Positions 20,274 to 61,348 of a stretch of 64,000 nt of DNA are shown piece after piece (position 1 is the first letter of the stretch; each line of letters starts with the position of its first letter). Made by a program: the position numbers and the translations under genes. Origin of the DNA: Escherichia phage vB_Eco_Jura. The notes under the pieces were generated by a model, which saw only the letters and a list, made by a program, of their open reading frames with translations, was not told the DNA's origin and made no database searches. The stretch is from the sequence record LR999871; one strand, written 5' to 3'.

Positions 20274-20336
20274 AGTAGGTTTCCTATACAAACTTATATC
20301 TATTAGAAATCACACTATACCTAGTGTAAGGACGAG

Positions 20337-20355
20337 AAAAAAGCCCCGAAGGGCT
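20337..20355 (-). terminator. terminator/attenuator upstream of the vRNAP gene
   Basis: Stem AGCCC/GGGCT with loop CGAA, followed on the minus strand by TTTTT; lies between the 20374 stop and the vRNAP start. Confidence 0.5.
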
Positions 20356-20373
20356 TTTGTATTATGGTAGAAA

Positions 20374-22308
20374 TTAACGAGGAAATATATCAGGGATACC
20401 CAATCGACGCCCGGCATCTCTGCCTAAACTTCTCCGGTTTGCCTCGCTCTCTTCCTGTTTAATATTTTGTAGGCTCTTAATATCCAAATTCTGAGGGTCA
20501 GCAGCTACAGCACTACGAGCACCATCAAGAAGACGTTTAGCAGTGTTAACTCGCTCCTGATAGCGAGGTAGTACACTTCTAAGGTTTTCCTGACCGGTTT
20601 GAATACGACGCTGTACTTCACGTAAATCAGCAAGTGCAGTATCTAACGTATTCTGTGCTGCATAGATGTTTGATTGAATTTGTGCAGTAAGCTGATTACG
20701 AGCATTCTGTTCAATAGCAGTACCAGTAGTTGCAAGTTTTGCATTTGCTTCTACGGCTGCTTTATCCAGTTGGTAATCACCACCCAAATCAATAACATCA
20801 GTATCAAAGGCATTTCGAATACCACTAAACCATCCCTCTGGTTTACCAGTGATACTACGTTGAATGATTGCTCCTGCCATAGCGGGAGAAATAGCATTCT
20901 GTTTTGCTACCTCATTGATTTGTCGAACCAGTGCACCTTGGTTAATACCTTTCAATTCGTTGCTATCAATAATACGTTTAGCTACCTGACCAGTCGTAGA
21001 AGGGTCAACAGTAGCTGCTTGGTATTCTGGCAGCAGAGTATTACCAATATTCTGCATATTACGAGTACCAACAGTATTACCAGCAACAGAAGTGAATGCT
21101 TGTTCCTGTAATGGATTAATAGAATTACCTGTTTCTGCTTGAGCAATGTAATCCTTCATTTCATCCCATGACAAGTTCTTATAAGCACCAGGAGTATCAT
21201 CTGGTAAAGCAGCCCATGTACTCTTCAAATTACCATTCTTACGAGCATTAAAAATAGCTTCACCCAGTTTGTCTTGGTTTTCTGGAGACATAGGAATGTT
21301 CTGCCAATCTTCACCAAATACCTTTGGAGCAAAGTCTTTAAGGGTATCTTGGTTAATCTGGTATGCACCAACAGGAGAAGCACCTAGTGTCTTCTTCATA
21401 GTGTCTTGATGCTGAACCACCTCACCTAAGTTCATCTGAGTAATAGGTACATCAGTTGGTGTGAACTTATAGGTAGTGTCATATGCAGAACCATTCCGAG
21501 TACCCTGAGTACCAGGAGGAGATAGAGATGCAGAACCAGTTCCCGGAGTATATGCACCTGGATATGCTCTATCTAACTGAGATAGTGCACGACTTACTGC
21601 TCCTGGTGACATTTGGTCGAACGTACCCTCTGCAAGCATACGAGCATCGTCAGAACTGTATGCACCACGACGAATATTATTCAGTAACTGCATAGCAGCC
21701 TGAGTATCCGCATCGTTACGCATATCAACACCTAAGTCGAATAAGCTACGACGTTGACCAATACCAGCAGTACCCTGTCCTTGAAGGTTGTTCATGTAGT
21801 CCATAACAACACCAGCAGGAAGGGTTTTTAATACATCCCCATACTGAGCCTGTGCTGCCTGAACCTTTCTTGGGTCACCAGATTGATAAGCCAGAGCCAA
21901 TTCCTGTAATGCAGGGGCAGCAGCATCAGTAGCTGCATTTACCTTCATGGTTCTGTCATTACTGTATCGAGTGAAATCCAGATTTTGTTGTTTAGATGCT
22001 TGGTCTAACAGATTGCCAGCACGATTATCTAAGTTCTCCATAGTACGAGAAGAAATTAGAGAAGGGTCATAGCCAGCAAATAATGCTCCAGAAGCTAAGG
22101 CATTACGATACTCATTAGGGTCTTGGTAGCGCATGGCTTCAGCCATAATTGCATCACCAGCTTGCTGTCTTGCAGAGTTTCGAAAATCACCTAATGCATT
22201 ACTCAATCCGGCAGTGGCATTACCCAGCATATTGGAGAAAGTACGAATACTATCCCCAACACCAGAGAAAGAAGGAGCATCAACATTACGCCATGTAATT
22301 TGAGCCAT
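20374..22308 (-). CDS. structural-module protein (644 aa), function unknown
   Basis: ATG preceded by AAGAGG; Gly/Ala/Gln-rich; a GAYQIN segment faintly recalls a transglycosylase motif. Position suggests a virion/internal protein. Confidence 0.6.
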   Translation of the reverse strand: MAQITWRNVDAPSFSGVGDSIRTFSNMLGNATAGLSNALGDFRNSARQQAGDAIMAEAMRYQDPNEYRNALASGALFAGYDPSLISSRTMENLDNRAGNLLDQASKQQNLDFTRYSNDRTMKVNAATDAAAPALQELALAYQSGDPRKVQAAQAQYGDVLKTLPAGVVMDYMNNLQGQGTAGIGQRRSLFDLGVDMRNDADTQAAMQLLNNIRRGAYSSDDARMLAEGTFDQMSPGAVSRALSQLDRAYPGAYTPGTGSASLSPPGTQGTRNGSAYDTTYKFTPTDVPITQMNLGEVVQHQDTMKKTLGASPVGAYQINQDTLKDFAPKVFGEDWQNIPMSPENQDKLGEAIFNARKNGNLKSTWAALPDDTPGAYKNLSWDEMKDYIAQAETGNSINPLQEQAFTSVAGNTVGTRNMQNIGNTLLPEYQAATVDPSTTGQVAKRIIDSNELKGINQGALVRQINEVAKQNAISPAMAGAIIQRSITGKPEGWFSGIRNAFDTDVIDLGGDYQLDKAAVEANAKLATTGTAIEQNARNQLTAQIQSNIYAAQNTLDTALADLREVQRRIQTGQENLRSVLPRYQERVNTAKRLLDGARSAVAADPQNLDIKSLQNIKQEESEANRRSLGRDAGRRLGIPDIFPR

Positions 22309-22318
22309 GTGATACCTC

Positions 22319-22771
22319 TTAACGAGTTAAGCGATTAGCTGCAATGTAAGCATCAGCCGTAGATTGGTCACGATTTTCTGCAACAGCACGACTACGAGCA
22401 CGGTCTTCCAGAGCAGTGTTATAGGACTTAATCTGGTTATTCAGATTAGTGTTAGTAACATCTTTAGCAAAAGAGAACTGATTCTTAGCTAACTTGTTAG
22501 CCTGTAATGCACCATAGATATTACCCAGTGCATTAAGACCACCTAACCCCAACTGGAAGGTAGGAATGTTCAGACCCAGTTGGTCAGTAAGCCCTTGAGT
22601 CTGTCCACCGGTATTCCCTGTAGCACCACCAGTAATGTTCTGAAGCCAGTCATTACTAAGGATGCCGGATTGCATAGGGTTATAGTTCATGGTTGGGGTA
22701 TTAAAGGAACCATATCCATAGCCAAAATTGCTTTGTGCAGATGGGGTTCCAAAAAGGAAATTAGTATCCAT
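22319..22771 (-). CDS. structural-module protein (150 aa), Gly/Asn/Thr-rich
   Basis: ATG preceded by AGGAGAA; low-complexity G/N/T-rich sequence. Confidence 0.6.
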   Translation of the reverse strand: MDTNFLFGTPSAQSNFGYGYGSFNTPTMNYNPMQSGILSNDWLQNITGGATGNTGGQTQGLTDQLGLNIPTFQLGLGGLNALGNIYGALQANKLAKNQFSFAKDVTNTNLNNQIKSYNTALEDRARSRAVAENRDQSTADAYIAANRLTR

Positions 22772-22784
22772 AAGGATTCTCCTG

Positions 22785-25442
22785 TTACGTATCTAAATCA
22801 AGCTGCAACGTTATATCTGCAAAGTTGGTAATCATGTTGTTAGACATATCAGCTATATCATGACCAGTCATAAGAGTACGGCTAAGGAATGAATCCAGTG
22901 GTTCAAATTGTTGGCCTACATTAGTTAGGTTCATTGGGTCAATGTAACCCATGCCCTCAGTGCCAAACATTTCCTCGTACTTTTCCTGAATGGTTTTCAT
23001 CTGGTCACGGTACTCTGCCATAAGTTTCTCTGTCTTTTTGACAGTTTCCATAGCAGAAGCATTGATGTAATCACTTATGCCATTTCCTACAGATGAAGTG
23101 AGTTTAATGATGTTGTCTGCTTTCATCATTTCACCCAGCATCGTAGACATGGATGAACCAGTGGATAAAGCTGTGCCGACATTCATGGCTACCATAGAGG
23201 CAATAGTAGCAACAATGATTCCAATCTTATCCCCAAGTAGACTAACAGAGACTGTTTGAATAATGGACATCAGAATCATAGCTGCAATGGCATTAGCCAC
23301 AGCCCCAACGATAATAGCAGCTAACCCTGCAAAACCTAATGCAGCACCAATAGAAGCAGCAGTACCCATTACCCCAGCACCAGCAGCAGGGGTAAAGAAC
23401 ACAGACACTACTACTGCAACAACAACCACTACTACTTTAAAGATGCCAGACTGATACCATTTCTTCTTAACTTTCTTATATGAGTTAAGAACCAGATAAC
23501 AACATGCTGTAGATAACTGAGTACCATTTACCAAAGACATACTACGGTAAATGTTGTTATGAAGAGGGATGATAAATCCAGACTCTTCATCATCATTTAG
23601 TGCATCTACACCAGAAATGCTTACAGATTTATTCTTGTAAACATTATTGTTATGGTTCAGGCCATAGACAGAAATCTTCCTCCATGAATTATCCCCATCC
23701 TGCCAATACATTGTTATCTTATCTAGCCTGTAGATAGTAAACCCAACTTTGTCATTACCCTTTTCAGAGTACATAACAGCTTTCTGCATAAGGACTACAG
23801 TACCTTCATAAGCAAACTTGAGCTGCCCTTTCTTGGCTCCAGAGAATGCTTTACCTGAACCAACGGACTCTTCAATGAAGTTCCAACTAATAGTCATGTT
23901 GTAACGGTATCCACCGTTAGAACGGATATTAATGGATTTAGAAGGTATTGTTGGGTATACGGGTCTTTTAGGGGGCTTCCCTATGGGAATATCCCTATTA
24001 CCACTACGAGATTCCCACCATTCCTGGTAAGCATCAAAGTCCCTGTTAGCCTGAGCAAAGCCTTCTACCAAAGCATCCATAGTTGGGTAGTTTGGGTCAG
24101 CAGGCATTGACTGATTCACTAACTGGAAGAATCTGTAGATGTACTCTTTAGCTGTATTTTCAGGGCTATTAAGAGAACAACCAAATACAGCATAGATATA
24201 CTGAATATCACCAATATCTTTGTTCTTCTTCAGGTCATCCATAATGTCAGAAATCTTACCCCCTGTAGCCTTCTTAAAGGCTTTCTTACAAAGAGTATAT
24301 GTAGAACCAGAAATCCAGTTCTTATCACTACGGATAGGGATGAATGAATAGAATCTGTTATTGGTCGTCTTATTAATAAACAGAGCATCAAGGACGGCAT
24401 TACCACTGTTCTGTTTATAAATAAACAATTGAGGCATACCACCAGCAGACATAGTAGTAACTACATCTGTATTCTGATAAGACCATGTATAACCTAAAGT
24501 ATCTGTAGTTACTGTAGTAGTTCTGGTTTCAGTAACCCCACCACCTAAATCAATAACTTCAGTGTTTGTAGTGGAACCAGTGGATACAGTGCCAGTCTGT
24601 ACCTGGGTCATTGTAGTCTTACGAATAATGATTAAGCCTACTTCACTTGGTTCACGAAATTCTTTCTCGTAAACATCTGAGAAATTAGTCCAACTAACCT
24701 GTTCTTCTTCAGTATTGGTACTTTCCTCATCAGGTCTGCCATCAGAGAATACACTCTTAATATGAGTAACTGTCTTCAGGGTAGCTGACTTAGGAGTATG
24801 GTTCTGAGATACCTGAGTCCATTCAGAAGTAGAAGGTAAGTCATCAGCAGATGATACAGATACAGCAGGGTGAACCACTGGGTCTGCAACACTAGTAGGC
24901 TGTATGTAGTAATAGTTCACATACAGATACATTGCATCCTGACTGAAATTCTCTGGGTAAAAGGATAACTCACTACCATCAGTAGCAGTGAGTACAATCC
25001 TGTCATCATCCATGATGTCTATTTCAAACTCTTCAGTAATACGGTCTGGATAATTCTCATAGAGGAATTTATCAGCCCATTCCTCAAAATCACCAAATCC
25101 AATCCTACTGCTCTGAACCTGTACCTCATAACCTGCTTTTTGAGGAACTTGCCATTTAACTACTTCAGGGTCTATCTGAGACAGTATTGACAAGTTCCCG
25201 TAAGCAATACCAATTGAAGGGTCATAGTTAGTTGCAGCCCAACCAGGGAATCTACGTAAACGAATACCAGGTCCATTTAAATAAGAGTCAGTGATGGTAT
25301 CACCCATACTAAAGTCAGATTTACTGACGATGTTACCAATCACCGTAGTCTTTAAATAATTTGGACGTTTATGTATATCCCCTGCCAAATTGTAGACAGA
25401 GGATGCTACGTAGATTTTAGTCTTACTGCTAAACAGTCCCAT
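22785..25442 (-). CDS. large virion protein (885 aa) with a cluster of predicted transmembrane helices
   Basis: ATG right after the upstream stop. About 120 residues of consecutive hydrophobic segments (VVVVVAVVVSVFF...AGLAAIIVGAVANAIAAMILMSIIQ...IIVATIASMVAMNVGTAL), as in ejection/channel proteins. Confidence 0.65.
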   Translation of the reverse strand: MGLFSSKTKIYVASSVYNLAGDIHKRPNYLKTTVIGNIVSKSDFSMGDTITDSYLNGPGIRLRRFPGWAATNYDPSIGIAYGNLSILSQIDPEVVKWQVPQKAGYEVQVQSSRIGFGDFEEWADKFLYENYPDRITEEFEIDIMDDDRIVLTATDGSELSFYPENFSQDAMYLYVNYYYIQPTSVADPVVHPAVSVSSADDLPSTSEWTQVSQNHTPKSATLKTVTHIKSVFSDGRPDEESTNTEEEQVSWTNFSDVYEKEFREPSEVGLIIIRKTTMTQVQTGTVSTGSTTNTEVIDLGGGVTETRTTTVTTDTLGYTWSYQNTDVVTTMSAGGMPQLFIYKQNSGNAVLDALFINKTTNNRFYSFIPIRSDKNWISGSTYTLCKKAFKKATGGKISDIMDDLKKNKDIGDIQYIYAVFGCSLNSPENTAKEYIYRFFQLVNQSMPADPNYPTMDALVEGFAQANRDFDAYQEWWESRSGNRDIPIGKPPKRPVYPTIPSKSINIRSNGGYRYNMTISWNFIEESVGSGKAFSGAKKGQLKFAYEGTVVLMQKAVMYSEKGNDKVGFTIYRLDKITMYWQDGDNSWRKISVYGLNHNNNVYKNKSVSISGVDALNDDEESGFIIPLHNNIYRSMSLVNGTQLSTACCYLVLNSYKKVKKKWYQSGIFKVVVVVVAVVVSVFFTPAAGAGVMGTAASIGAALGFAGLAAIIVGAVANAIAAMILMSIIQTVSVSLLGDKIGIIVATIASMVAMNVGTALSTGSSMSTMLGEMMKADNIIKLTSSVGNGISDYINASAMETVKKTEKLMAEYRDQMKTIQEKYEEMFGTEGMGYIDPMNLTNVGQQFEPLDSFLSRTLMTGHDIADMSNNMITNFADITLQLDLDT

Positions 25443-43457: not shown

Positions 43458-44142
43458 CAATAATATCCTCGTCTTCTCGAACCAGTGTGGAACCTGCAAT
43501 TACTTTAGTAGGTGTACCGGCTTCAATAGCTGCTTTCTGAGCCTCAGCCAACTGGGTTAGTGTGTTCTTGAGTTCAGTCAATCCAGAGTTTTCTCTCAAA
43601 TCCAGATTGATATTAGTAACAGCATCCTTCGGTTTCTGGAGGTGAGTAAGGATAGAGTTGGCAGCATCACACTGTACCTTCTCACTGGTAGCATTCTTCA
43701 TGAGCCATGCCTGATGGTTCAATGCTTCCTGAAACAAATCCTGATTAACAATCCATACTGGAATCAGTGATTGTTCCATAATGAGGTTTACTAACTTACC
43801 TCTATGGTAAGCAGATACATAAGCAGAGATGTCCTTCTCACTGGTTCCCCTTGCTACTAATTCAGCTTGTCTGTTGGGGAATGTTTTGAAGTAAGCATCT
43901 TTGTTGCTATACCCCATGTGTTTGTAAGTAACATATTGAACAGCATTAAGGTAATCCTGGGTCTTAAACTTCCCATCCTTCATCACCCCAGCATAAGTCA
44001 CAAAGTTATTTCTAATTTGCTCTGCTGCTGTCTGGTCTTGGGTCACATTGTTAATCATGTTTACCAGTTGGTCAGTAACACTGCTTTTAAACTGGGGAGG
44101 CAATGCAGAAACAATGTCTTTCTTCGTCAGTAGTGTGCTCAT
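43450..44142 (-). CDS. terminase small subunit candidate (230 aa)
   Basis: First gene of the minus-strand operon (ATG after AGGAAG), directly upstream of and overlapping the large terminase; by position only. Confidence 0.35.
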   Translation of the reverse strand: MSTLLTKKDIVSALPPQFKSSVTDQLVNMINNVTQDQTAAEQIRNNFVTYAGVMKDGKFKTQDYLNAVQYVTYKHMGYSNKDAYFKTFPNRQAELVARGTSEKDISAYVSAYHRGKLVNLIMEQSLIPVWIVNQDLFQEALNHQAWLMKNATSEKVQCDAANSILTHLQKPKDAVTNINLDLRENSGLTELKNTLTQLAEAQKAAIEAGTPTKVIAGSTLVREDEDIIDV

Positions 44143-44269
44143 AGTCTTCCTACAAATTATCTAGAGTGAAGAGGATTCTTTTCTTGGGGTTAGCACCCCT
44201 TGCAGAAACCTATACATAGATTTAGACTTTAGACTTTCTTTAGTCTCCTTACAATAGTAAGACAGAGAC

Positions 44270-44611
44270 ATGGGGAGCCTATTGCCCAAAGGAACCAGTA
44301 ACATGAGACTATTCTATAGTTTTGACGGTAATGACCAATGGAATGAGATAGACTTCAGTAAAATAGGTGGAGCTATCCCAGTTGGAGGGGCTATGCCAGG
44401 TGACCATATCTTATGTCACGATGAGGAGTCTTTCCATTACATCTCAGGTATGATGTTAATCAATAACGTCACTGGGTTTACTGTCCATAAACCTGCACCA
44501 GTACGTGTCATTACCAAGCCTATCGAGGGTCTTGCATTCTTTACAAGAATACCTCAAAGTATCTCTATCAAACGACAGCGTGACGCCATCGAGATGACCG
44601 TGGTTGCTTGA
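44270..44611 (+). CDS. hypothetical protein (113 aa)
   Basis: ATG-initiated ORF, weak SD; first plus-strand gene after the divergent junction. Confidence 0.4.
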   Translation: MGSLLPKGTSNMRLFYSFDGNDQWNEIDFSKIGGAIPVGGAMPGDHILCHDEESFHYISGMMLINNVTGFTVHKPAPVRVITKPIEGLAFFTRIPQSISIKRQRDAIEMTVVA

Positions 44612-44774
44612 TAAGCCATTGCCCGCCCAGGAGTTGGTGGCGGGAAACAGGGAACTGTTTGAATAACCACTCCAGCTACATTCACCTATCTCCAAGACAC
44701 CTTTGTTATCTGCCATTGGGTGATGAGTAGTATCAGAGAGAACTGATTTAACAAACACACTCGGTATAGGAATT

Positions 44775-44797
44775 GGGAGCCAAATGGCTCCCTTTTT
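44775..44797 (+). terminator. rho-independent terminator
   Basis: Stem GGGAGCC/GGCTCCC with loop AAAT, then TTTTT. Confidence 0.6.
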
Positions 44798-44821
44798 CTT
44801 TTATGAACCAAGGAGTTCTAT

Positions 44822-45187
44822 ATGAACATTCGTCCTAATGAAGTTTATGGTATCAACCTAGAATACACTACAAACAAACCTGCTCTATTTCACTGTGGTT
44901 CCACCAATCTATTCCATGCTATGTGTGGTAATACCAAACCTCTTTACTTACCCGAATCAGACGATACTCATGCCCTACTAGGTAACTGGTTCTTAGAAGG
45001 TAAAGACATTAGTACCATTCTCCTTGAACCAAGGAAGAAAGTAGCAATACCTACTAATGCATGGAATAACGAAGTCATTTACTTCCTCGCACCTGAAGGC
45101 TTTGAACCAGTGATAGAACAGAATCACTTTAATCATGCAGTTACTTTCTACTTCAGAGAGACTTCAAAGTTATCTGCTTATAAATAA
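44822..45187 (+). CDS. hypothetical protein (121 aa)
   Basis: ATG preceded by AAGGAG at optimal spacing. Confidence 0.6.
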   Translation: MNIRPNEVYGINLEYTTNKPALFHCGSTNLFHAMCGNTKPLYLPESDDTHALLGNWFLEGKDISTILLEPRKKVAIPTNAWNNEVIYFLAPEGFEPVIEQNHFNHAVTFYFRETSKLSAYK

Positions 45188-45195
45188 GGAAAGCT

Positions 45196-45324
45196 ATGTG
45201 GTATATAACAGTTAAAGGTTTACCCGAACCAGTGATGATAGATAGCCTGGCATTCGTAGAAGTAGGTCATCCTATTCTTATAGAAGGTAAGTTGTATGAA
45301 GTTGTTAGTATTTATAAGAGATAA
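45196..45324 (+). CDS. candidate small protein (42 aa), absent from the ORF track
   Basis: ATG 4 nt after AAGGAAA; encodes MWYITVKGLPEPVMIDSLAFVEVGHPILIEGKLYEVVSIYKR. Confidence 0.4.
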   Translation: MWYITVKGLPEPVMIDSLAFVEVGHPILIEGKLYEVVSIYKR

Positions 45325-45432
45325 ATAGGAAGTCTATTAGATAGATACCCTATAATTTTTTCTTAGTGAAAATAGTCATAGTTACTTATGAGTTCAGTAT
45401 TTGGTGGGGCTACACCCCTTACACCATAAGCA

Positions 45433-45442
45433 CCCCCCCCCC
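45433..45442. repeat. poly(C) homopolymer tract (10 nt)
   Basis: Uninterrupted run of 10 C in the non-coding stretch 45325-45555, about 50 bp upstream of hairpin motif copy 1. Confidence 0.8.
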
Positions 45443-45491
45443 TGTCTTTACTAGTGTAGCCTTAGCCTACCCCACCTTGTACACGTTACAC

Positions 45492-45510
45492 GTTGCTTCG
45501 CAACTTATGG
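45492..45510 (+). promoter_or_regulatory. hairpin promoter candidate 1 (virion-RNAP type)
   Basis: GTTGC-TTC-GCAAC (5-bp stem, 3-nt loop) then CTTATGG; shares the 16-nt pattern GCT[CT]CGC-NN-CTT[TA]TGG with two other copies. 46 nt upstream of the ATG at 45556. Confidence 0.45.
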
Positions 45511-45555
45511 ACATGTTGTCCGTATCTTATCAATCAACTATTGGAGACTAATACT

Positions 45556-45882
45556 ATGACTACTCAGGCTAACGTTCGTATGACTGTAGGAACTCTGTTG
45601 GGTACTGTTAACGAAGCAGCAACTACTGTAGCTGATACATTCGGTACTGCTACTAAAGCAGTAGGTATGCTTAATCGTTATGTAACTAAACAAGCAGATA
45701 AACAAATCATTCGTGACAAATTAGAAATGCATGAGTTTACCAATAAACTTATTGAAGAAACTGCAATGCAAGAAGCTATTCGTCAGAAACAAATCTTAGA
45801 CTTCTGCAAAGATGAACAAAACAAAGAATTGTTCTCTAATGCCTATGACCGTCTTAGCAAAATCTTAGCAGACTCTAAATAA
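45556..45882 (+). CDS. early protein (108 aa), function unknown
   Basis: Track start 45493 is a TTG inside hairpin copy 1; first ATG at 45556 follows GGAG. Confidence 0.6.
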   Translation: MTTQANVRMTVGTLLGTVNEAATTVADTFGTATKAVGMLNRYVTKQADKQIIRDKLEMHEFTNKLIEETAMQEAIRQKQILDFCKDEQNKELFSNAYDRLSKILADSK

Positions 45883-45894
45883 TAACAAACAAAT

Positions 45895-45918
45895 GGAGGC
45901 TCCTCGGAGTCTCCTTTT
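45895..45918 (+). terminator. rho-independent terminator
   Basis: Stem GGAGGCTC/GAGTCTCC (one G-U) with loop CTCG, then TTTT; 13 nt after the 45882 stop. Confidence 0.5.
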
Positions 45919-45960
45919 ACATAGAACCGATAGTTCAATAACTATCTACTTTAAAGATAA

Positions 45961-45979
45961 GAAGCTCCGCTTCTTTTGG
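45961..45979 (+). promoter_or_regulatory. hairpin promoter candidate 2 (virion-RNAP type)
   Basis: GAAGC-TCC-GCTTC (5-bp stem, 3-nt loop) then CTTTTGG; core GCTCCGC-NN-CTTTTGG identical to copy 3. Confidence 0.45.
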
Positions 45980-46086
45980 ATGAAGTAATGCATCCAATCC
46001 TGTATGAAATCTTAACCTTTTGTCTGGGATTACTTACCGACAAAGTAGTCTCAACTAATCAAAATCAACTATCTGGAGAGTACAAA

Positions 46087-46473
46087 ATGGCTATCACTAC
46101 TTTTGCTAAAACCTTTGGTCAGGCTTCTACTAAAACCGAATCCAACAATGGTTCTCGTCCAAAAGCTCAGTTCTGGATTAACGTTGGCTATGTAGCTAAT
46201 GAAGGCACTGAAGATGAACGTTTCATCTCTCTGCCTACTGGTATTCCACTGGATACTCAGGAGCATCTGCCAACCAATTCCTCTAACGAAGACTTCCGTG
46301 CAATGCGTTGTGCACAGAACGATTTGTTAGACCAACTGATGGAATTTGCTAAGACTCTGGAACCGGGTCAAGAAGGAGTTATCTCACTGCAAGTTCAACT
46401 TCGTCGAGTTAAAGAAGAAGCTCCTGCTATCTCAGCAAGTGAGAATAAATATGCTCGTAAACTGACTTTCTAA
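46087..46473 (+). CDS. early protein (128 aa), function unknown
   Basis: Track start 45976 is the TTG inside the promoter motif; ATG at 46087 has a strong SD (GGAGAG, 7-nt spacing). An alternative ATG at 45988 has a weak SD. Confidence 0.55.
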
Positions 46474-46481
46474 TCTCTATA

Positions 46482-46506
46482 GGACTACCTTCGGGTAGTC
46501 CTTTTT
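46482..46506 (+). terminator. rho-independent terminator (UUCG tetraloop)
   Basis: Stem GGACTACC/GGTAGTCC, loop TTCG, then TTTTT; 9 nt after the 46473 stop. Confidence 0.7.
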
Positions 46507-46615
46507 AATTTTAACTATCTAAATACTAAAGTAGAGATTTTGACCCTTTTCGACGAAGGGATACTAAAAAGTAATGGATAGTTTGAGCAGATGTTTTAGA
46601 AGAAGGAGTATACAG

Positions 46616-46930
46616 ATGCATCCTCTTATAAAACGATTCCTGATGGACTATCAGGAGTGGTTAGATAATGGAGCCAGTGAACCTCATTACCTGTTTGATA
46701 GGGGTAGTGGACTGTGTGTTCAACTAGGCAAATATCTTAGAAGACAGCCAATCAGTGAAGAAACAGTAGATACTCTGTGTAAGAGCTTTACTCATTTACT
46801 TCCTGATAATGATACCAATCTACCATTCAATGTAGATGTTCTCGACTACATGATGGAATGTTCTGATGGAAGATGTCATCTGAACCAAAGTCGAATTAAT
46901 TGGATTAAGAGTCAGTTGGAGAGTAAGTAA
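46616..46930 (+). CDS. early protein (104 aa), function unknown
   Basis: Track ATG at 46574 has no SD; the in-frame ATG at 46616 follows AAGGAG. Confidence 0.55.
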   Translation: MHPLIKRFLMDYQEWLDNGASEPHYLFDRGSGLCVQLGKYLRRQPISEETVDTLCKSFTHLLPDNDTNLPFNVDVLDYMMECSDGRCHLNQSRINWIKSQLESK

Positions 46931-46933
46931 ATT

Positions 46934-47371
46934 ATGTCATATGAAATTGTAAAACATTGGACTTCTAAGGCTGGGCTGAAGGCTTGGGTATTGCTGGTAA
47001 ATGGTGGTAGCCATCATTGTGGTTATGTGGAAATACCAGAAGCATTACTGGATAAAAACTTCTATGACTATATATGTGATGATGAAGAAACACTTCATAT
47101 TACAGTACATGGTGGAGTTACCTATCAAGGTGTTCCTCAGTGGGCTGATGGGATTAAAGTCATAGGTTATGACTGTGCTCATGCAGGGGATAAACTGAAA
47201 TGTCCTAAACAATTCATTGGCTCTCTTAGGGAGAGACTCTATGAGGATTCTTATGGAGTATGGCGAGATGAAGAATACTGCATCAATGAATGTGAAAGCA
47301 TGGCAGACCAGTTAATTAACCTGATACCAAAATTAGGGTTTAACGATGAAATTCAGAACAGTAATGGTTAA
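46934..47371 (+). CDS. early protein (145 aa), His/Cys-rich, function unknown
   Basis: ATG-initiated; contains HHCGYV, VHGG, GYDCAHAGD, suggesting a metal site; no family recognised. Confidence 0.55.
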   Translation: MSYEIVKHWTSKAGLKAWVLLVNGGSHHCGYVEIPEALLDKNFYDYICDDEETLHITVHGGVTYQGVPQWADGIKVIGYDCAHAGDKLKCPKQFIGSLRERLYEDSYGVWRDEEYCINECESMADQLINLIPKLGFNDEIQNSNG

Positions 47372-47543
47372 TGCTCTTGATACCAGGGGTAATGAAATCA
47401 TTAGCTATAAAGTGCAAGGCTTTAAATGGTTCAAATGGAAAACATTAACTAGCTTTAAAGAATTTGAGAAAGATAAAGCTATTAAGTTAACCAAGAAATT
47501 GAACCAACGTAAGAAGATTAAATTAGTTACTGTAATTAAATAA
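47346..47543 (+). CDS. small basic protein candidate (65 aa)
   Basis: ATG inside the 3' end of the upstream gene in another frame; Lys-rich; no clear SD. Confidence 0.3.
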   Translation: MKFRTVMVNALDTRGNEIISYKVQGFKWFKWKTLTSFKEFEKDKAIKLTKKLNQRKKIKLVTVIK

Positions 47544-47553
47544 GGATAAGGCA

Positions 47554-47712
47554 ATGCGTAAATCACTAATCATGGGAACCAAAGAAGACGTTGCTAAGAT
47601 GAAAGCTAAACGTCAGATGAATAAAGCAGTAACGTTTGCAGAACGTTATAGTACGTCTGAACCAGTACGTCGTATTGTTACTTTCAACCATCCAGCTATT
47701 AAGGGTATGTAA
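47554..47712 (+). CDS. candidate small protein (52 aa), absent from the ORF track
   Basis: ATG 7 nt after AAGGA; MRKSLIMGTKEDVAKMKAKRQMNKAVTFAERYSTSEPVRRIVTFNHPAIKGM; its stop overlaps the next ATG (TAATG). Confidence 0.4.
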   Translation: MRKSLIMGTKEDVAKMKAKRQMNKAVTFAERYSTSEPVRRIVTFNHPAIKGM

Positions 47713-47921
47713 TGCAAACTAAAGATAAGAAAGACTTAGAACGTCTTCTCCGTGTATATGGTGATTATGCATTGTTAGCAGAGATAACTAATATTATCGA
47801 AGAAGACTGTCGTAACGGTTATGCCAATAACCCACAAGCAATAATTCATCGTGATGCAGTAGTGCTTAGAGAAGCAGTCAGTAAGATGCAAGCATTACAT
47901 CCATTAAGACAGCGAGCATAA
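47712..47921 (+). CDS. early protein (69 aa)
   Basis: ATG with TAATG overlap; followed by a GC hairpin and T-rich tract. Confidence 0.5.
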   Translation: MQTKDKKDLERLLRVYGDYALLAEITNIIEEDCRNGYANNPQAIIHRDAVVLREAVSKMQALHPLRQRA

Positions 47922-47925
47922 ATAG

Positions 47926-47956
47926 GAGGGGGCTACTAAGCCCTCTTCTTATTTTT
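47926..47956 (+). terminator. terminator candidate
   Basis: GC-rich stem GAGGG/CCCTC around a 10-nt loop, then TTCTTATTTTT. Confidence 0.4.
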
Positions 47957-47994
47957 ATCGTGGTTATTAAGCAACTATCTTAGAGGAAGGAATA

Positions 47995-48210
47995 ATGGAA
48001 CAGTTAAACTACGGTTATAAGATTAAACGCAATCAAGTAAGAGGTTCTTGGTTATTTCTCGTTTATGGTAAACCAATCTATGAATTACATCGTGGAGAGA
48101 AATCCAAGACCTATTACGTAACTCATATTGCTACAGGAAAAACTCCTGCATGTGCAGGATTGCTTCGTGATGCAATTATGAAAGCATGTATGTTAGAAGG
48201 ACTTCTATGA
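47995..48210 (+). CDS. early protein (71 aa)
   Basis: ATG preceded by GAGGAAGGA. Confidence 0.55.
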   Translation: MEQLNYGYKIKRNQVRGSWLFLVYGKPIYELHRGEKSKTYYVTHIATGKTPACAGLLRDAIMKACMLEGLL

Positions 48211-48521
48211 ACCAAATCATTGCTATCCCGCAGCATAAAGCTCGTATTGCTGACAGGAATATTCGTATTCATTATCCAATGCCTTTGAGTAATCCATTTC
48301 AGAAAAATGAGAGAACCACGGATGAAGATATAGCAGCAGCTTATGAGGCATATCTTCGTAACCGTTTGGTAAGTGGTGACAAGCTCATTACGGCTGAAAT
48401 GGAACGAATTGCTAAATTCGTTATAGATGATACTGACAAACCCGTTGGCCTCATTGGTAATGAACTGGAAGTGAATGTAATCCGTAAGATTATTATGGAG
48501 GCTCTTAATGGGAATCAGTGA
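48207..48521 (+). CDS. early protein (104 aa)
   Basis: Track start 48186 trimmed to the ATG at 48207, which follows AGAAGGA and overlaps the upstream stop (ATGA). Confidence 0.55.
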   Translation: MNQIIAIPQHKARIADRNIRIHYPMPLSNPFQKNERTTDEDIAAAYEAYLRNRLVSGDKLITAEMERIAKFVIDDTDKPVGLIGNELEVNVIRKIIMEALNGNQ

Positions 48522-48684
48522 ATCCCAGGCTATGGCTATTAAACAGTTAGCCTTCAACTGCCTTAGTGCTATGAAGGCATTTAATGAAGCAAAAACTTTC
48601 CCTGACCAGAATAAAGCTCGTATTCGACTTTATCAGTCTAAGAAAGATTTTGAAGAATATCTGGAAAGTATTACGGTGAAATAA
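48508..48684 (+). CDS. candidate small protein (58 aa), absent from the ORF track
   Basis: ATG 7 nt after GGAGG; fills the gap between annotated ORFs; stop overlaps the next ATG (TAATG). Confidence 0.45.
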   Translation: MGISESQAMAIKQLAFNCLSAMKAFNEAKTFPDQNKARIRLYQSKKDFEEYLESITVK

Positions 48685-49004
48685 TGAAAACAATATTAAT
48701 TGTTCATGATGCTGATTTTAATGATGTTGATAAAATGATGCGTAATATTGATTATGTAGCTCAGACAACTCCAGCATTTAAAGAAGAATTTACTCTATAT
48801 TGTGATGCTAATTCACCATTAGTTCCCATTCTGAAAGAAGCTGGTTTACCCTTCTCTACAGATAATTTCCCTGAAGAACCTGATTATGTAATTTCATTTA
48901 TTTATGACTTACATGATGGCTCAGAACCAAGTGAATTGACTATGAGTCAATGGAAATCCAGAAGACCTGTATATGCATTTCAGGTAGTTAAATCAAGGAG
49001 TTAA
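48684..49004 (+). CDS. early protein (106 aa)
   Basis: ATG in a TAATG overlap; no motif recognised. Confidence 0.55.
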   Translation: MKTILIVHDADFNDVDKMMRNIDYVAQTTPAFKEEFTLYCDANSPLVPILKEAGLPFSTDNFPEEPDYVISFIYDLHDGSEPSELTMSQWKSRRPVYAFQVVKSRS

Positions 49005-49006
49005 CT

Positions 49007-49375
49007 ATGTTAGGTGATAACACTAATGCTCTGTTTGGAGTGTCAGCCAGACCTATTATCATTGTTAATAAACATCATGGTAAAAAGGGTGAATATATTG
49101 GGCGTGGTTCTCCTCTGGGTAATCCATTCGTTATTGGTAAAGATGGAACCAGAGAAGAAGTAATTGCCAAATATAAAGTATGGCTACAAGAACAGATTGA
49201 TAAAGGTAATCCAGTTGTACTGGATGAATTAAATCGTCTTGGTAATAAAGCCATTGATGAAAAAGGATTAGCTTTACAGTGCTTCTGTTATCCAAAACCT
49301 TGTCATGGCGAGGTTATTAAAGAGAAGTTAGTAAAAGCTATGTATAACTACTTTGTGGAAAATCCTAATGGATAA
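49007..49375 (+). CDS. DUF4326-like protein (GNP motif), 122 aa
   Basis: ATG preceded by AAGGAG; YIGRGSPLGNPF ... QCFCYPKPCHGEV matches the DUF4326 hallmark as I recall it (Gly-Asn-Pro motif plus C-terminal Cys/His cluster). Confidence 0.5.
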   Translation: MLGDNTNALFGVSARPIIIVNKHHGKKGEYIGRGSPLGNPFVIGKDGTREEVIAKYKVWLQEQIDKGNPVVLDELNRLGNKAIDEKGLALQCFCYPKPCHGEVIKEKLVKAMYNYFVENPNG

Positions 49376-49553
49376 ACAATGCAAATGTGGTAAAGGCTAT
49401 GTATCCCAATGGGATGGTAAATGTGGTCATTGTAGAACCAAGAAAGAACAACGTGACCATGAATATGCACTTCAGGAAATGATTGTACCTGTTGAGAATT
49501 TAGGTATGGCTCCACTTGAGGCTTACAAATACATAAGGAGATTATGCAAATGA
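49368..49553 (+). CDS. small zinc-ribbon protein (61 aa)
   Basis: Track TTG start trimmed to the ATG at 49368; MDKQCKCGKGYVSQWDGKCGHCRTKK has a C-x-C ... C-x2-C arrangement. Confidence 0.45.
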   Translation: MDKQCKCGKGYVSQWDGKCGHCRTKKEQRDHEYALQEMIVPVENLGMAPLEAYKYIRRLCK

Positions 49554-49930
49554 AAGAAGTATTCGTATTTGGTTCTAACCTTGCTGGTGTACATGGTGCA
49601 GGTGCTGCAAAGACAGCATATAAGAAACATGGAGCCAGATGGGGTAAAGGGCATGGTCATTATGGTGACAGCTACGCTATTCCCACTAAAGATACCAATA
49701 TCAAAACGATGACTATTGAAGACATTCGTACATTTGTAAACGCCTTCATTGTCTATGCTGCTAATCATCCAGAACTTAACTTTAAAGTTACTCGTGTAGG
49801 TTGTGGATTAGCTGGTATTGATGATTCTGTTATGGCCTCTATGTTTGAAAATGCCACTGATAACTGTTCCTTTGACTTAGCATGGAAAAGTTACTTAGGG
49901 GATGATTTCAACTACTGGGGAACGTTCTAA
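49544..49930 (+). CDS. hypothetical protein with N-terminal glycine-rich loop (128 aa)
   Basis: ATG preceded by AGGAG; N-terminus VFVFGSNLAGVHGAGAAKTA...GDSYAIPTK looks like a beta-strand plus Gly-rich nucleotide-binding loop; family not resolved. Confidence 0.5.
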   Translation: MQMKEVFVFGSNLAGVHGAGAAKTAYKKHGARWGKGHGHYGDSYAIPTKDTNIKTMTIEDIRTFVNAFIVYAANHPELNFKVTRVGCGLAGIDDSVMASMFENATDNCSFDLAWKSYLGDDFNYWGTF

Positions 49931-49947
49931 CTCATACGTTAGGCAAT

Positions 49948-49968
49948 AAGCTGCTCCGCAGCTTTTGG
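49948..49968 (+). promoter_or_regulatory. hairpin promoter candidate 3 (virion-RNAP type), upstream of the RNAP subunit genes
   Basis: AAGCTGC-TCC-GCAGCTT (7-bp stem, 3-nt loop) then TTGG; core GCTCCGC-AG-CTTTTGG; 37 nt before the ATG at 50005. Confidence 0.45.
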
Positions 49969-50004
49969 TAATTAATATGTTTAACCAATTTTGGAGAATA
50001 TGCG

Positions 50005-50817
50005 ATGTCTACTATCGAACATCAGATGCACCTCGAAAAGCTGTACAACAAGAACCAACTGTTACCAAGAATGCGTCAGGAGTTTGAAGAAAACTCTGGT
50101 ATTGATTTCAAAGCCTTCTTTGCACATATAGGCATTGATTACAAATTTGGCATTGATGCAATGGTTCAAATGGCTCTGCATAAGCGAGCTGACCTACCAA
50201 CATTAGTTGGTACATTGCGTCATCATTGCAAATCTGCACAGGAAGTAGCAGACAACCTTTTTAAGATGGCAAGTGAGGATTGCTTTAACTTTGACCCGAC
50301 CATCGACAAGTTCATTGTCATTTATACAATCAGCGATGACGTACAGCATGAACTGGATTCATTTCAATATCCACTACCTATGGTAGTACGTCCTAAGCTG
50401 TTAACTAAGAATTATGGTACTGGGTACTTCACATGTAATAAGAGTGTGATTCTTAAGAAGAACCATACTGACGATGACATCTGCTTAGACCATCTGAACC
50501 GTATGAACAAGATTCCATTGTCTATCAATTGGGATGTAGCTCATATGGTTAAAAATGAATGGGCTAATCTGGATAAACCGAAAGAAGGTGAAACTCGTCA
50601 GGAGTTTGAAAAACGTGTACGTGCATTCCAGAAATATGACCGTACTGCACATGAAGTAATGGGTTTATTGACCCAGGAAGGCAATAAGTTCTATCTGACT
50701 CATCGTCCGGATAAACGTGGTCGTACCTATTGCCAAGGTTATCATGTAACATACCAGGGAACTTCTTGGTGTAAAGCCGTGATTGAACTTGCTGATAAGG
50801 AACTTATCAATGATTAA
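50005..50817 (+). CDS. phage RNA polymerase, small (N-terminal-type) subunit, 270 aa
   Basis: ATG preceded by GGAGAA. Assigned from its pairing with the catalytic-subunit gene downstream and the 270/404-aa sizes I recall for the N4 two-subunit enzyme; no catalytic motif expected here. Confidence 0.55.
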   Translation: MSTIEHQMHLEKLYNKNQLLPRMRQEFEENSGIDFKAFFAHIGIDYKFGIDAMVQMALHKRADLPTLVGTLRHHCKSAQEVADNLFKMASEDCFNFDPTIDKFIVIYTISDDVQHELDSFQYPLPMVVRPKLLTKNYGTGYFTCNKSVILKKNHTDDDICLDHLNRMNKIPLSINWDVAHMVKNEWANLDKPKEGETRQEFEKRVRAFQKYDRTAHEVMGLLTQEGNKFYLTHRPDKRGRTYCQGYHVTYQGTSWCKAVIELADKELIND

Positions 50818-51319
50818 AGACAGAATGCCTATGGGTTACTGGAACAAACCAATAGAAGAATTAGCAATAGCTCACCCAAAAGAAGCTGCTAATAGTGCTA
50901 GTGGTTACATACGTATATCCAGAAACAATAGGATTCATTATTTACATCGTTGGTTGTGGGAACAAAAACATGGTGCTATCCCTGCTGGACACACCATTGA
51001 CCATCTTAATGGAATCCGGACTGATTGCCGTTGGGAAAACATGCGTTGTATCCCTTGGGCAATTAACTTACGTAATAGTACAAAGCGTGCTGATAACACG
51101 TCAGGAGTAACAGGTGTCTCACTATGGAAATCTCCAAAAGGAGTGTTCTGGAGAGCAACTTGTACTGACAACTTAACAGGAAAACAACGATGTAAGGTGT
51201 TTTCCATAAATAAATACGGTTACAACTTTGCATTTGAATTAGCATGTGATGCTCGTGCCGATATGATTGAACGCCTGAACCAACAAGGTGCAGGTTATAC
51301 CGACCGTCACGGTCAATAA
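50810..51319 (+). CDS. HNH homing endonuclease with AP2-like DNA-binding domain
   Basis: Track start 50783 trimmed to the ATG at 50810 (after AAGGA, overlapping the upstream stop). HNH core GHTIDHLNGIRTDCRWENMRCIPWAINLRN; C-terminal SGVTGVSLWKSPKGVFWRA is AP2-like. Confidence 0.75.
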   Translation: MIKDRMPMGYWNKPIEELAIAHPKEAANSASGYIRISRNNRIHYLHRWLWEQKHGAIPAGHTIDHLNGIRTDCRWENMRCIPWAINLRNSTKRADNTSGVTGVSLWKSPKGVFWRATCTDNLTGKQRCKVFSINKYGYNFAFELACDARADMIERLNQQGAGYTDRHGQ

Positions 51320-51331
51320 TCCCTATAAGCA

Positions 51332-51352
51332 GGCTCTCCATAGTGGGGAGCC
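51332..51352 (+). other. 8-bp hairpin in the RNA leader of the catalytic RNAP subunit gene
   Basis: GGCTCTCC/GGGGAGCC (one G-U) with loop ATAGT, followed by an A/G-rich SD region rather than a T tract. Confidence 0.4.
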
Positions 51353-51373
51353 AAGAAGCAAGAGGAATATACA

Positions 51374-52588
51374 ATGCAAACTTTTACTGCCCGTGAATAT
51401 CTGAAAATTGACATTGCTAATAACTATGGTCTGGATAAAGAAGACTGGGATGACCGTATTGCATGGTTCGATAAGAATGAGAACAACCTGCTGAACCTTG
51501 TAAGAGAAGCTGAAGAACCAGCCCTGTTCTATGCTGGTGTTAAAGCATGGATGGACGTTAAGGAAGGTAAGCCAATTGGTTATCCTGTTGCACTGGATGC
51601 TACATCATCTGGTCTACAGATTCTGGCTTGCCTGACTGGTGACCGTAGAGCTGCTGAACTATGTAACGTTGTTAACTATCGTGATGAAAGTGGCAAAGTT
51701 AAACGTCGTGATGCTTATACAGTTATCTACAACAAGATGCTGAACACTCTTGGTAAAGGTGCTCGTATCAAACGTAATGACTGTAAACAAGCAATCATGA
51801 CTGCTCTGTATGGTTCAGAGGCTAAACCAAAGGAAGTATTTGGTGAAGGCATTATGCTCAACGTATTTGAAAGCACAATGAATGTGGAAGCACCTGCTGT
51901 ATGGGAATTGAATAAATTCTGGTTACAGTGTGGTAATCCAGAGGCTTTCGTATATCACTGGGTAATGCCAGATGGCTTTAACGTATATATCAAAGTAATG
52001 GTAAATGAAGTGGAGACTGTCCACTTCTTAGATAAGCCGTATGACTGTGTTCGTAAAGTACAAGGTACTGAAGAGAAGACTCGTATGCTATCTGCCAATA
52101 CCACCCACTCTATTGATGGCCTAGTAGTACGTGAGCTGGTTCGTCGTTGTGACTATGACAAGAACCAGATTGAATACATCAAGGCTCTTTGCAATGGTGA
52201 AGCTGAATATAAGACTTCTGAAAAGAACTATGGCAAAGCAATGGAACTGTGGGGCTACTATGAGAAGACAGGATTCCTGACTGCTCGTATCTTTGATTAT
52301 CTGGATTCTGAAACTATTAAATTAGTAAATACTCAGGACATTCTAGACCTGATTGAATCCATGCCTAAGAAACCATTCCATGTACTCACTGTACATGACT
52401 GCTTCCGTTGCCTGCCTAACTATGGCAATGACATTCGTCGTCAGTACAACAACCTGTTAGCTACTATTGCTAAAGGTGACTTACTATCTTTCATTATGAG
52501 CCAGGTTCTAGGCCAAGAAGTTACTATTGGCAAACTAGACCCGACTCTATGGGAAGATGTATTAGAAACCGAATACGCTCTATCTTAA
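51374..52588 (+). CDS. phage RNA polymerase, catalytic subunit (T7-like palm), 404 aa
   Basis: ATG preceded by AGAGGAA. T7 RNAP-type motifs in order: PVALDATSSGLQ (motif A, D...SG-Q), RNDCKQAIMTALYGS (motif B, R-x3-K-x7-YG), VHDCF (motif C). Confidence 0.8.
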   Translation: MQTFTAREYLKIDIANNYGLDKEDWDDRIAWFDKNENNLLNLVREAEEPALFYAGVKAWMDVKEGKPIGYPVALDATSSGLQILACLTGDRRAAELCNVVNYRDESGKVKRRDAYTVIYNKMLNTLGKGARIKRNDCKQAIMTALYGSEAKPKEVFGEGIMLNVFESTMNVEAPAVWELNKFWLQCGNPEAFVYHWVMPDGFNVYIKVMVNEVETVHFLDKPYDCVRKVQGTEEKTRMLSANTTHSIDGLVVRELVRRCDYDKNQIEYIKALCNGEAEYKTSEKNYGKAMELWGYYEKTGFLTARIFDYLDSETIKLVNTQDILDLIESMPKKPFHVLTVHDCFRCLPNYGNDIRRQYNNLLATIAKGDLLSFIMSQVLGQEVTIGKLDPTLWEDVLETEYALS

Positions 52589-61029: not shown

Positions 61030-61348
61030 CCCAAATATCATCCATGCCAAAACAGGCGAATCCCATAAGCTGTCTGAATATTCCAAAGTAGAAGATATTG
61101 CAGTTTGTCCTGCAAATATTGCTTCTCTTTGTATCTGTATTGCAGAGCTATCTAAAGAACGCCAACTATGGTTATCTCCTAATAAAACAATGGTTCAGGC
61201 AGGTCTGGCAGAAGTACAACGTATGCTGGATGAATGGTCTGAAGACCAGATGTTCATTGATGGCAATGCAGAAGCAATAACCGATGACATGGCCTCTGAT
61301 ATGGCTGTGTTTGTATTACAAGCAATGGCTGAAAAGCGTAGTAGTTAA
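61022..61348 (+). CDS. hypothetical protein (108 aa)
   Basis: Track TTG start trimmed to the ATG at 61022 (after GGAAGAAA; ATGATTGA overlap with upstream stop). Confidence 0.5.
   Translation: MIDPNIIHAKTGESHKLSEYSKVEDIAVCPANIASLCICIAELSKERQLWLSPNKTMVQAGLAEVQRMLDEWSEDQMFIDGNAEAITDDMASDMAVFVLQAMAEKRSS

Follow-up and report, generated by a model that had tools for sequence, protein, structure and literature searches.

We report that three short hairpins in the genome of Escherichia phage vB_Eco_Jura (sequence record LR999871; the 64,000-nucleotide stretch analysed here is called the window) are almost certainly the early promoters P1, P2 and P3 of an N4-species coliphage, which serve the T7-like, single-subunit RNA polymerase carried in its virion (vRNAP, gp50). 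Their identity is based on the sequences and hairpins themselves, on their register and on identity with phage N4; relatives conserve the elements with covarying stems, the genome holds no further copy, and the cognate polymerase is intact. Initiation activity in this phage, and its dependence on gyrase as well as on single-stranded DNA-binding protein (SSB), are predicted from the N4 literature. An earlier reading of the letters alone, the first-pass annotation, had proposed the elements as candidate virion-RNAP promoters. The promoter class it chose is right, in that the sites are identical to N4 P1-P3, carry the template determinants and are accompanied by an intact cognate vRNAP, but the word ‘candidate’ is not, since these are established promoters of this phage species.

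All three elements lie on the plus strand and share the sequence GCT[CT]CGC-NN-CTT[TA]TGG in the same register, at the places where they had been noticed at first pass. P1 (45492-45510, positions -17 to +2) reads GTTGC-TTC-GCAAC-TTATGG, with a 5-bp stem (GTTGC/GCAAC) and the loop TTC. On the template (minus) strand its loop is 5′-GAA-3′, with A at -11; the loop centre lies at 45498 and +1 at 45509 (N4 nt 107), from which transcription is predicted to run rightward into gp1. P2 (45959-45979, plus strand) contains GAAGC-TCC-GCTTC-TTTTGG at 45961-45979, and its 5-bp core stem (GAAGC/GCTTC), which encloses the loop TCC, can be extended to 7 bp (AAGAAGC/GCTTCTT, 45959-45975). Its template loop is 5′-GGA-3′, with G at -11, and TTTT occupies -4 to -1 (AAAA on the template); the loop centre is at 45967 and +1 at 45978 (N4 nt 576), upstream of gp2. 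P3 (49948-49968, plus strand), AAGCTGC-TCC-GCAGCTT-TTGG, has a 7-bp stem (AAGCTGC/GCAGCTT) and again the loop TCC (5′-GGA-3′ on the template), with its centre at 49956 and +1 at 49967 (N4 nt 4565), and the start codon of gp15, which encodes a subunit of the phage polymerase RNAPII, is found 38 nt downstream. The structural scan described below gives stems of 5 bp, 7 bp (with the 5-bp core) and 7 bp, and so bears out the earlier description of a 5-7 bp stem and a 3-nt loop in each element. The notation ‘GCAAC/CTTATGG’ used for P1 at first pass counts the last C of the stem twice, a trivial slip.

The GCTYCGC heptamer is centred on 45498, 45967 and 49956, within exact plus-strand matches to GCTYCGC-NN-CTTWTGG at 45495-45510, 45964-45979 and 49953-49968, and GG stands at +11/+12 relative to that centre. 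The first G of the GG is therefore 11 nt past the loop centre in all three elements (45509, 45978 and 49967), as had been observed before, and this G is the predicted +1. In promoter numbering, the template strand carries -13G, -12A, -11A (P1) or -11G (P2 and P3), -10G, -9C, -8G, +1C and +2C at every site.

These features are confined to the three sites. The degenerate 16-mer GCTYCGCNNCTTWTGG has three exact matches in the window against 0.00 in 100 dinucleotide-preserving shuffles, a post hoc statistic, since the pattern was taken from the same three sites. With up to two mismatches, four matches were found where 0.58 would be expected. The extra one is a minus-strand site (61047-61062), which was rejected as an additional promoter, as neither the strict nor the relaxed structural scan detects a hairpin there. 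The strict, structure-first scan (stems of at least 5 bp, both strands) found 119 perfect hairpins with a 3-nt loop per strand, or 238 listings, since each palindromic site appears from both strands; nine have GG at +11/+12, and GCTYCGC occurs in P1-P3 only. When one stem mismatch was tolerated and GG was allowed at +10 to +12, a T[CT]C loop was still restricted to P1-P3 on both strands of the window. The same relaxed scan of N4 17800-25000, about 7 kb that are absent from the window, found no T[CT]C-loop hairpin with GG at +10 to +12. The search for further copies of the 16-mer that the first-pass annotation had suggested was thus carried out, and gave exactly three in the window and none in N4 17800-25000. 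A scan of the whole window with Rfam at gathering thresholds identified four tRNAs only and nothing at the three hairpins. These tRNA genes (Asn-GTT, Ser-TGA, Thr-TGT and Pro-TGG), detected by both ARAGORN and Rfam, lie at 7700-8378 on the plus strand, in an otherwise ORF-poor gap (7242-8880).

Folding of single-stranded DNA predicts the hairpin as the minimum-free-energy structure of the template strand at P1, P2 and P3. The hairpin forms on either strand, and the template-strand versions are marginally stabler than those of the plus strand. Their energies are -3.7 (P1), -5.3 (P2) and -6.7 (P3) kcal/mol, with z-scores of -2.6, -3.6 and -4.1; these are modest nearest-neighbour values, calculated with parameters that miss the special loop stability described in a review of the N4 system (PMC4496689). 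At first pass the hairpins had been assigned to the plus strand. The elements are indeed located there, but vRNAP reads the hairpin formed by the minus strand, which is the template (PMC4496689).

The window is approximately 98-99% identical to Escherichia phage N4, and 98-99.8% to N4-species phages. A 901-bp query around P1 and P2 is 99.0% identical to N4 (EF056009 / NC_008720), and its identity to other isolates of the N4 species, vB_Eco_AL25 for example, reaches 99.8%. When the ends of the N4 record were aligned by BLAST, N4 nt 68300-70153 corresponded to 43548-45401 of the window, and N4 nt 1-5400 to 45402-50802. The right end of the N4 record (nt 70153) therefore meets its left end (nt 1) at the junction 45401|45402, and, judged from this arrangement, the window comes from an assembly that was closed into a circle or permuted, with the physical left end of the genome at 45402. 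Just inside this end is a poly-C tract (45434-45443) with 10 C, where the N4 record has 9. The +1 of P1 is 107 nt inside the left end, and the three +1 sites fall at 0.15%, 0.82% and 6.5% of the N4 genome (70,153 nt), each on the coding strand of its downstream gene (gp1, gp2 and gp15). The hairpins of P1, P2 and P3 are identical in sequence to N4 positions 90-108, 559-577 and 4546-4566, and the region from -25 to +8 is the same as in N4 at all three sites, except for one substitution at -20 of P2. The two phages thus agree in the left-end positions of the promoters, the sequence from -19 to +8, stem and loop, the heptamer at -11, the determinants, the downstream genes and the polymerase. Essentially no difference exists in the promoters: the phage in the window departs from N4 at about 1-2% of bases, and the -20 position of P2 is outside the recognised region.

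The corresponding sites of N4 have been characterized in detail. [quoted passage not shown] Positions -17 to +1 are conserved and include, between inverted repeats, a GC-rich heptamer with its centre at -11; the non-conserved stem bases can be changed if the hairpin is kept (PMC4496689). Extrusion and stability of the hairpin need a G:C loop-closing pair and, in the loop, a 3′ A and a 5′ G, while vRNAP specifically reads -11A/G, -10G, -8G and +1C (PMC4496689). All template determinants listed in this review are present at P1, P2 and P3. In the complex of P2 with mini-vRNAP, a sheared pair joins -10G to -12A, residues D901 and R904 recognise -9C/-10G and -8G, the junction falls at -5/-4, and the start site comes after four A's (PMC4496689); the P2 template in the window, with -12A, -11G, -10G, -9C, -8G and four A's, matches this crystal description. 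For P1, the DNA used in a 2025 cryo-EM preprint is 5′-TGCCTCCCAGGCAGTCAAAAGTTGCGAAGCAAC-3′ (PMC12633501), and the 13-nt hairpin within it, GTTGCGAAGCAAC, is the exact reverse complement of 45492-45504. The match of P2 and P3 to the published promoters rests on the base-by-base description in the review and on the coordinates of the N4 record. A full-text search with the P2 template 13-mer returned papers that, by their titles and abstracts, concern only unrelated topics (mercury detection; yeast template switching). In N4, rifampicin-resistant initiation at +1 has been reported in vivo, as has specific initiation by vRNAP on single-stranded templates or on supercoiled templates with SSB (PMC4496689, PMC12633501).

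The polymerase itself is encoded in the window. The vRNAP gene (gp50, 9771-20291, minus strand) is an ORF of 3506 aa from the first TTG, and the N4 numbering, which places the start at 20273, gives 3500 aa, the size stated at first pass. The mini-vRNAP domain (13965-17282), the central 1106 residues, gives a near-identical, end-to-end alignment with PDB entries 3q0a, 3c2p and 2po4, and, in full-length structures (9pnr among them), aligns with residues 998-2103. The promoter-contact residues (K114, R119, W129, K267, K268, K849, K850, D901 and R904) and those that handle the initiating nucleotide (K437, R440 and E557) are intact, so that all 12 residues named in the review (PMC4496689) are preserved.

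In N4, vRNAP transcribes gp1, gp2, gp15 and gp16 (PMC12633501), and these are the genes downstream of the three sites in the window. The proposed placement upstream of early genes is thus confirmed by the N4 annotation of gp1, gp2 and gp15. The early gene gp1 (45556-45882, plus strand; 154-480 in the N4 annotation, offset 45402) encodes a cofactor of RNAPII (PMC4496689, PMC12633501), and its leader, counted from the P1 +1, is 47 nt. The gene after P2, gp2, extends over 45988-46473 (plus strand) as annotated in N4. Its annotated ATG (45988) is 10 nt past the P2 +1 and lacks a Shine-Dalgarno sequence; further inside the frame, an ATG at 46087 has a conserved GGAGAG ahead of it. The 33-codon N-terminal extension between them is open, with in-frame length changes, in phages KP8, U1G and PhAPEC5, and 45988-46089 shows the best DNA-level conservation across genera in the early region (84% to Klebsiella phages). 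These observations suggest that gp2 may be made as a near-leaderless long form, a short form or both. P3 is followed first by gp15 (50005-50817, plus strand), annotated ‘RNAP1’, the small subunit of N4 RNAPII, and its transcription unit includes gp16 (51374-52588, plus strand), annotated ‘RNAP2’, the large subunit.

Between gp15 and gp16, an insertion of about 560 bp relative to N4 (about 50803-51361) replaces N4 5400-5448. It is associated with a 178-aa ORF (50783-51319, plus strand) in which an HNH_3 endonuclease domain was recognised (E = 8e-17), together with an AP2 domain below threshold. This additional HNH ORF distinguishes the phage in the window from N4, and it looks like a homing endonuclease that is absent from N4 at that spot, inside the P3 transcription unit. 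A Pfam search with gp1, gp2 and two ORFs to the left of the terminus gave no matches.

We also compared early regions from nine further Schitoviridae, which were retrieved by way of the gp15 homologue. Plus-strand hairpins with a GC-TCC-GC core and a 3-nt loop occur in the early regions of N4, KP8, U1G, PhAPEC5, JWAlpha and RiverRider, and all of them have GG at +11/+12. There are four in KP8, four in U1G, three in PhAPEC5, one in JWAlpha and two in RiverRider, and the four in KP8 coincide with the depositors' annotation ‘early promoter’. Among the other GC-NNN-GC hairpins listed for these early regions, GG is found at +11/+12 in one only (U1G position 83, minus strand). The early promoters predicted or annotated in these relatives, which belong to the Enquatrovirinae and to more distant Schitoviridae, thus have in common with those of the window the GC-TCC-GC core, a stem of 5-7 bp with covarying outer pairs, GG at +11/+12 from the loop centre and a position upstream of gp1-, gp2- and gp15-like genes. 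They differ in the outer stem and in the spacer at -4 to -1 (TTAT, TTTT, CTAT, GT, AA and others), and in number, with four per genome in KP8 and U1G but three in the phage of the window. In addition, the P1 loop of the window is TTC (-11A), whereas its KP8 counterpart is TCC (-11G).

An alignment was made of 19 promoters from seven phages (16 distinct sequences), which takes in two GC-TGC-GC sites of Pseudomonas phage Ebordelon. In this alignment, G8, C9, T10, C12, G13 and C14 and the GG are invariant, and none of the 16 distinct sequences breaks any of the five inner pairs of the stem (100% paired). Double-sided changes (AU, CG, UA and GC) number 8 at pair 6/16 and 7 at pair 7/15. The covariation score is 0.477, compared with 0.110 +/- 0.036 in shuffles, and none of the 500 shuffles reaches the observed value. 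In slid controls the covariation is at most 0.10, and moving the 3′ arm by 1-3 columns leaves only 19-47% pairing. Covariation is good evidence for structural selection here because paralogous promoters within one genome are independent enough. We therefore have good evidence, from the alignment, that the stem is probably selected as structure and the core as sequence, a behaviour that agrees with experimental reports on N4.

The tails of the hairpins raise the question of a function as RNA. On the coding strand, the 5-7 bp stems of P2 and P3 run into TTTT, read-through RNA from P1 would fold the P2 and P3 hairpins and then present U4, and P2 comes after gp1 as P3 does after gp14. It is conceivable, although rather unlikely, that the P2 and P3 hairpins have a dual role, in which the RNA form (stem and U4) attenuates or terminates read-through. 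If this were true, promoter strength would be coupled to insulation between early units, and the identity of the elements would be unchanged. That the hairpins are instead simply intrinsic (rho-independent) terminators, which end transcripts arriving from upstream, is very improbable. A terminator scan of 44000-52000 calls none of P1, P2 and P3; it looks for a GC-rich stem of at least 5 pairs and a T tract (at least 5 T in 8), and the tails TTATGG, TTTTGG and TTGG fall short of this. The scan calls four other plus-strand hairpins instead. One of these (called at 45895-45914, within a terminator-like element at 45895-45922; 8 pairs, a 4-nt loop and then TTTT) lies between gp1 and P2, so a terminator candidate for gp1 already exists just upstream of P2; the others are at 44775-44792, 46481-46502 (after gp2) and 47924-47949. 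As a group, the four have stems of 7-11 bp, 4-nt loops and longer T tracts, a form distinct from that of the promoter hairpins, and on these features they are likely to be early-transcript terminators. P1, moreover, is approximately 100 nt from the physical left end with no gene upstream, and is followed by TTATGG. A GG fixed at +11/+12, a GC-TYC-GC core that does not vary and an outer stem that varies freely fit an element that is read by a protein, not a terminator. With the scan calling other, longer tetraloop hairpins, we rejected termination as the primary function, and the first-pass argument that the elements are not generic terminators holds.

Even less probable, and in our view barely worth entertaining, is a site for another system (RNAPII middle promoters, host sigma-70 promoters, or replication or packaging at the genome end): the sites are near the left physical terminus, and all three are intergenic and upstream of genes, but N4 RNAPII promoters have a minimal AT-rich element at -7 to +2 and a preferred T start (PMC4496689; PMC9163698), whereas P1-P3 are hairpins with a GC core that start with G. 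Sigma-70-like sites are scarcer in the region than expected (13 against 25), and none of them overlaps P1, P2 or P3. P3 is 4.5 kb from the terminus, which does not fit a terminus-specific function, and it is exactly these hairpins that were used in the published complexes of vRNAP with P1 and with P2 (PMC12633501, PMC4496689).

With P1-P3 taken as vRNAP promoters, the N4 literature provides a mechanism that would apply to the phage in the window. The vRNAP would enter the cell with the left end of the genome, and host DNA gyrase would supercoil the incoming DNA, such that the short inverted repeats extrude as cruciforms. Escherichia coli SSB would then melt the non-template hairpin, which is on the plus strand of the window (EcoSSB melts the plus-strand, non-template hairpin of N4; PMC4496689), while the unusually stable template-strand hairpin would survive and be bound by vRNAP. 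In the complex, W129 is expected to stack on the -11 purine at the centre of the 3-nt loop, K114 and R119 to form hydrogen bonds with -10G and -11G, and the beta-intercalating hairpin to set the boundary at which double-stranded DNA becomes single-stranded, at -5/-4. The bases at -4 to -1, which are not recognised, would serve as a ruler, so that synthesis begins with GTP opposite +1C and +2C. Rightward transcripts are accordingly predicted to start at G45509 (gp1), G45978 (gp2) and G49967 (gp15/gp16, RNAPII), and the genes downstream of P1-P3 would supply the machinery of middle transcription.

Promoters of this kind can be compared with two other systems. T7 RNA polymerase is a homologous single-subunit enzyme, with a specificity loop, a beta-intercalating hairpin and an upstream recognition element in common with vRNAP, and the promoters of both span about -17 to +1 and beyond and start with G (PMC4496689). 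However, T7 promoters are read as double-stranded sequence from -17 to +6, whereas those of the N4 type are read as a single-stranded template hairpin and need supercoiling and SSB in vivo. The N4-like Pseudomonas phage LUZ7, for which transcript ends were mapped by ONT-cappable-seq, also has virion-RNAP hairpins with a stem of at least 4 bp, a conserved 3-nt loop and a preferred G start (PMC9163698). LUZ7 differs in that transcription starts 13-14 nt past the hairpin centre, in place of 11 here, and in having nine early start sites (PMC9163698).

Several hairpins in other phages depart from the N4 pattern. In Ebordelon, the two hairpins that precede gp1- and gp2-like genes (98 and 768, sequence L007) carry a TGC loop in place of TCC or TTC, and their template -11 is therefore C, a pyrimidine. 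In a MAFFT alignment that is gappy there, the Ebordelon vRNAP (L013, 12610-23022) shows R, K and T where the residues that read -11 and -10 stand (K114, R119 and W129), while JWAlpha, with a TCC loop, keeps K114, R119 and W129. This gives only a hint that the loop and the ‘-11 recognition element’ of vRNAP may co-evolve across the Schitoviridae; if they do, the identity of P1-P3 is unchanged. Salmonella phage S5 has hairpins at 610, 2631 and 2683 with a C-TTC-G core, stems of 5-7 bp and GG at +11/+12, without the flanking G/C of the N4 heptamer, and these may be a variant class of early promoters in the Humphriesvirinae. In Pseudomonas phage LIT1, which is related to LUZ7, two identical hairpins with a 7-bp stem (AGCGTAC-TCC-GTACGCT) are found at 9225 and 12022, in the middle-gene region, and resemble the GC-rich hairpin ‘middle promoters’ of LUZ7 (PMC9163698).

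P1-P3 are already known and well-studied promoters, and nothing here is biologically new for N4, where mapping and mutagenesis of the promoters have been followed by structures of their complexes with the polymerase. The primary papers on mapping and structure are reportedly those of Haynes and Rothman-Denes (1985), Glucksmann (1992), Dai (1997/1998) and Gleghorn (2008). The value of the present result is that of a positive control: a sequence-only reading can recover DNA-hairpin promoters read by an injected polymerase, a class that is among the most unusual known, with the correct register and start. For the family, the hairpin scan found the N4-type core to be absent from the early regions of LIT1 and a Dinoroseobacter phage, and transcription in LUZ7 starts 13-14 nt from the centre; the exact motif is therefore clade-specific and not universal in the family, while the hairpin principle is family-wide. 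The comparative pattern in seven phages (an invariant GC-TYC-GC core, a free complementary outer stem and GG at +11), together with the variant cores in Ebordelon and Salmonella phage S5 that the same comparison shows, may be of modest practical use for annotating early promoters in the Schitoviridae.
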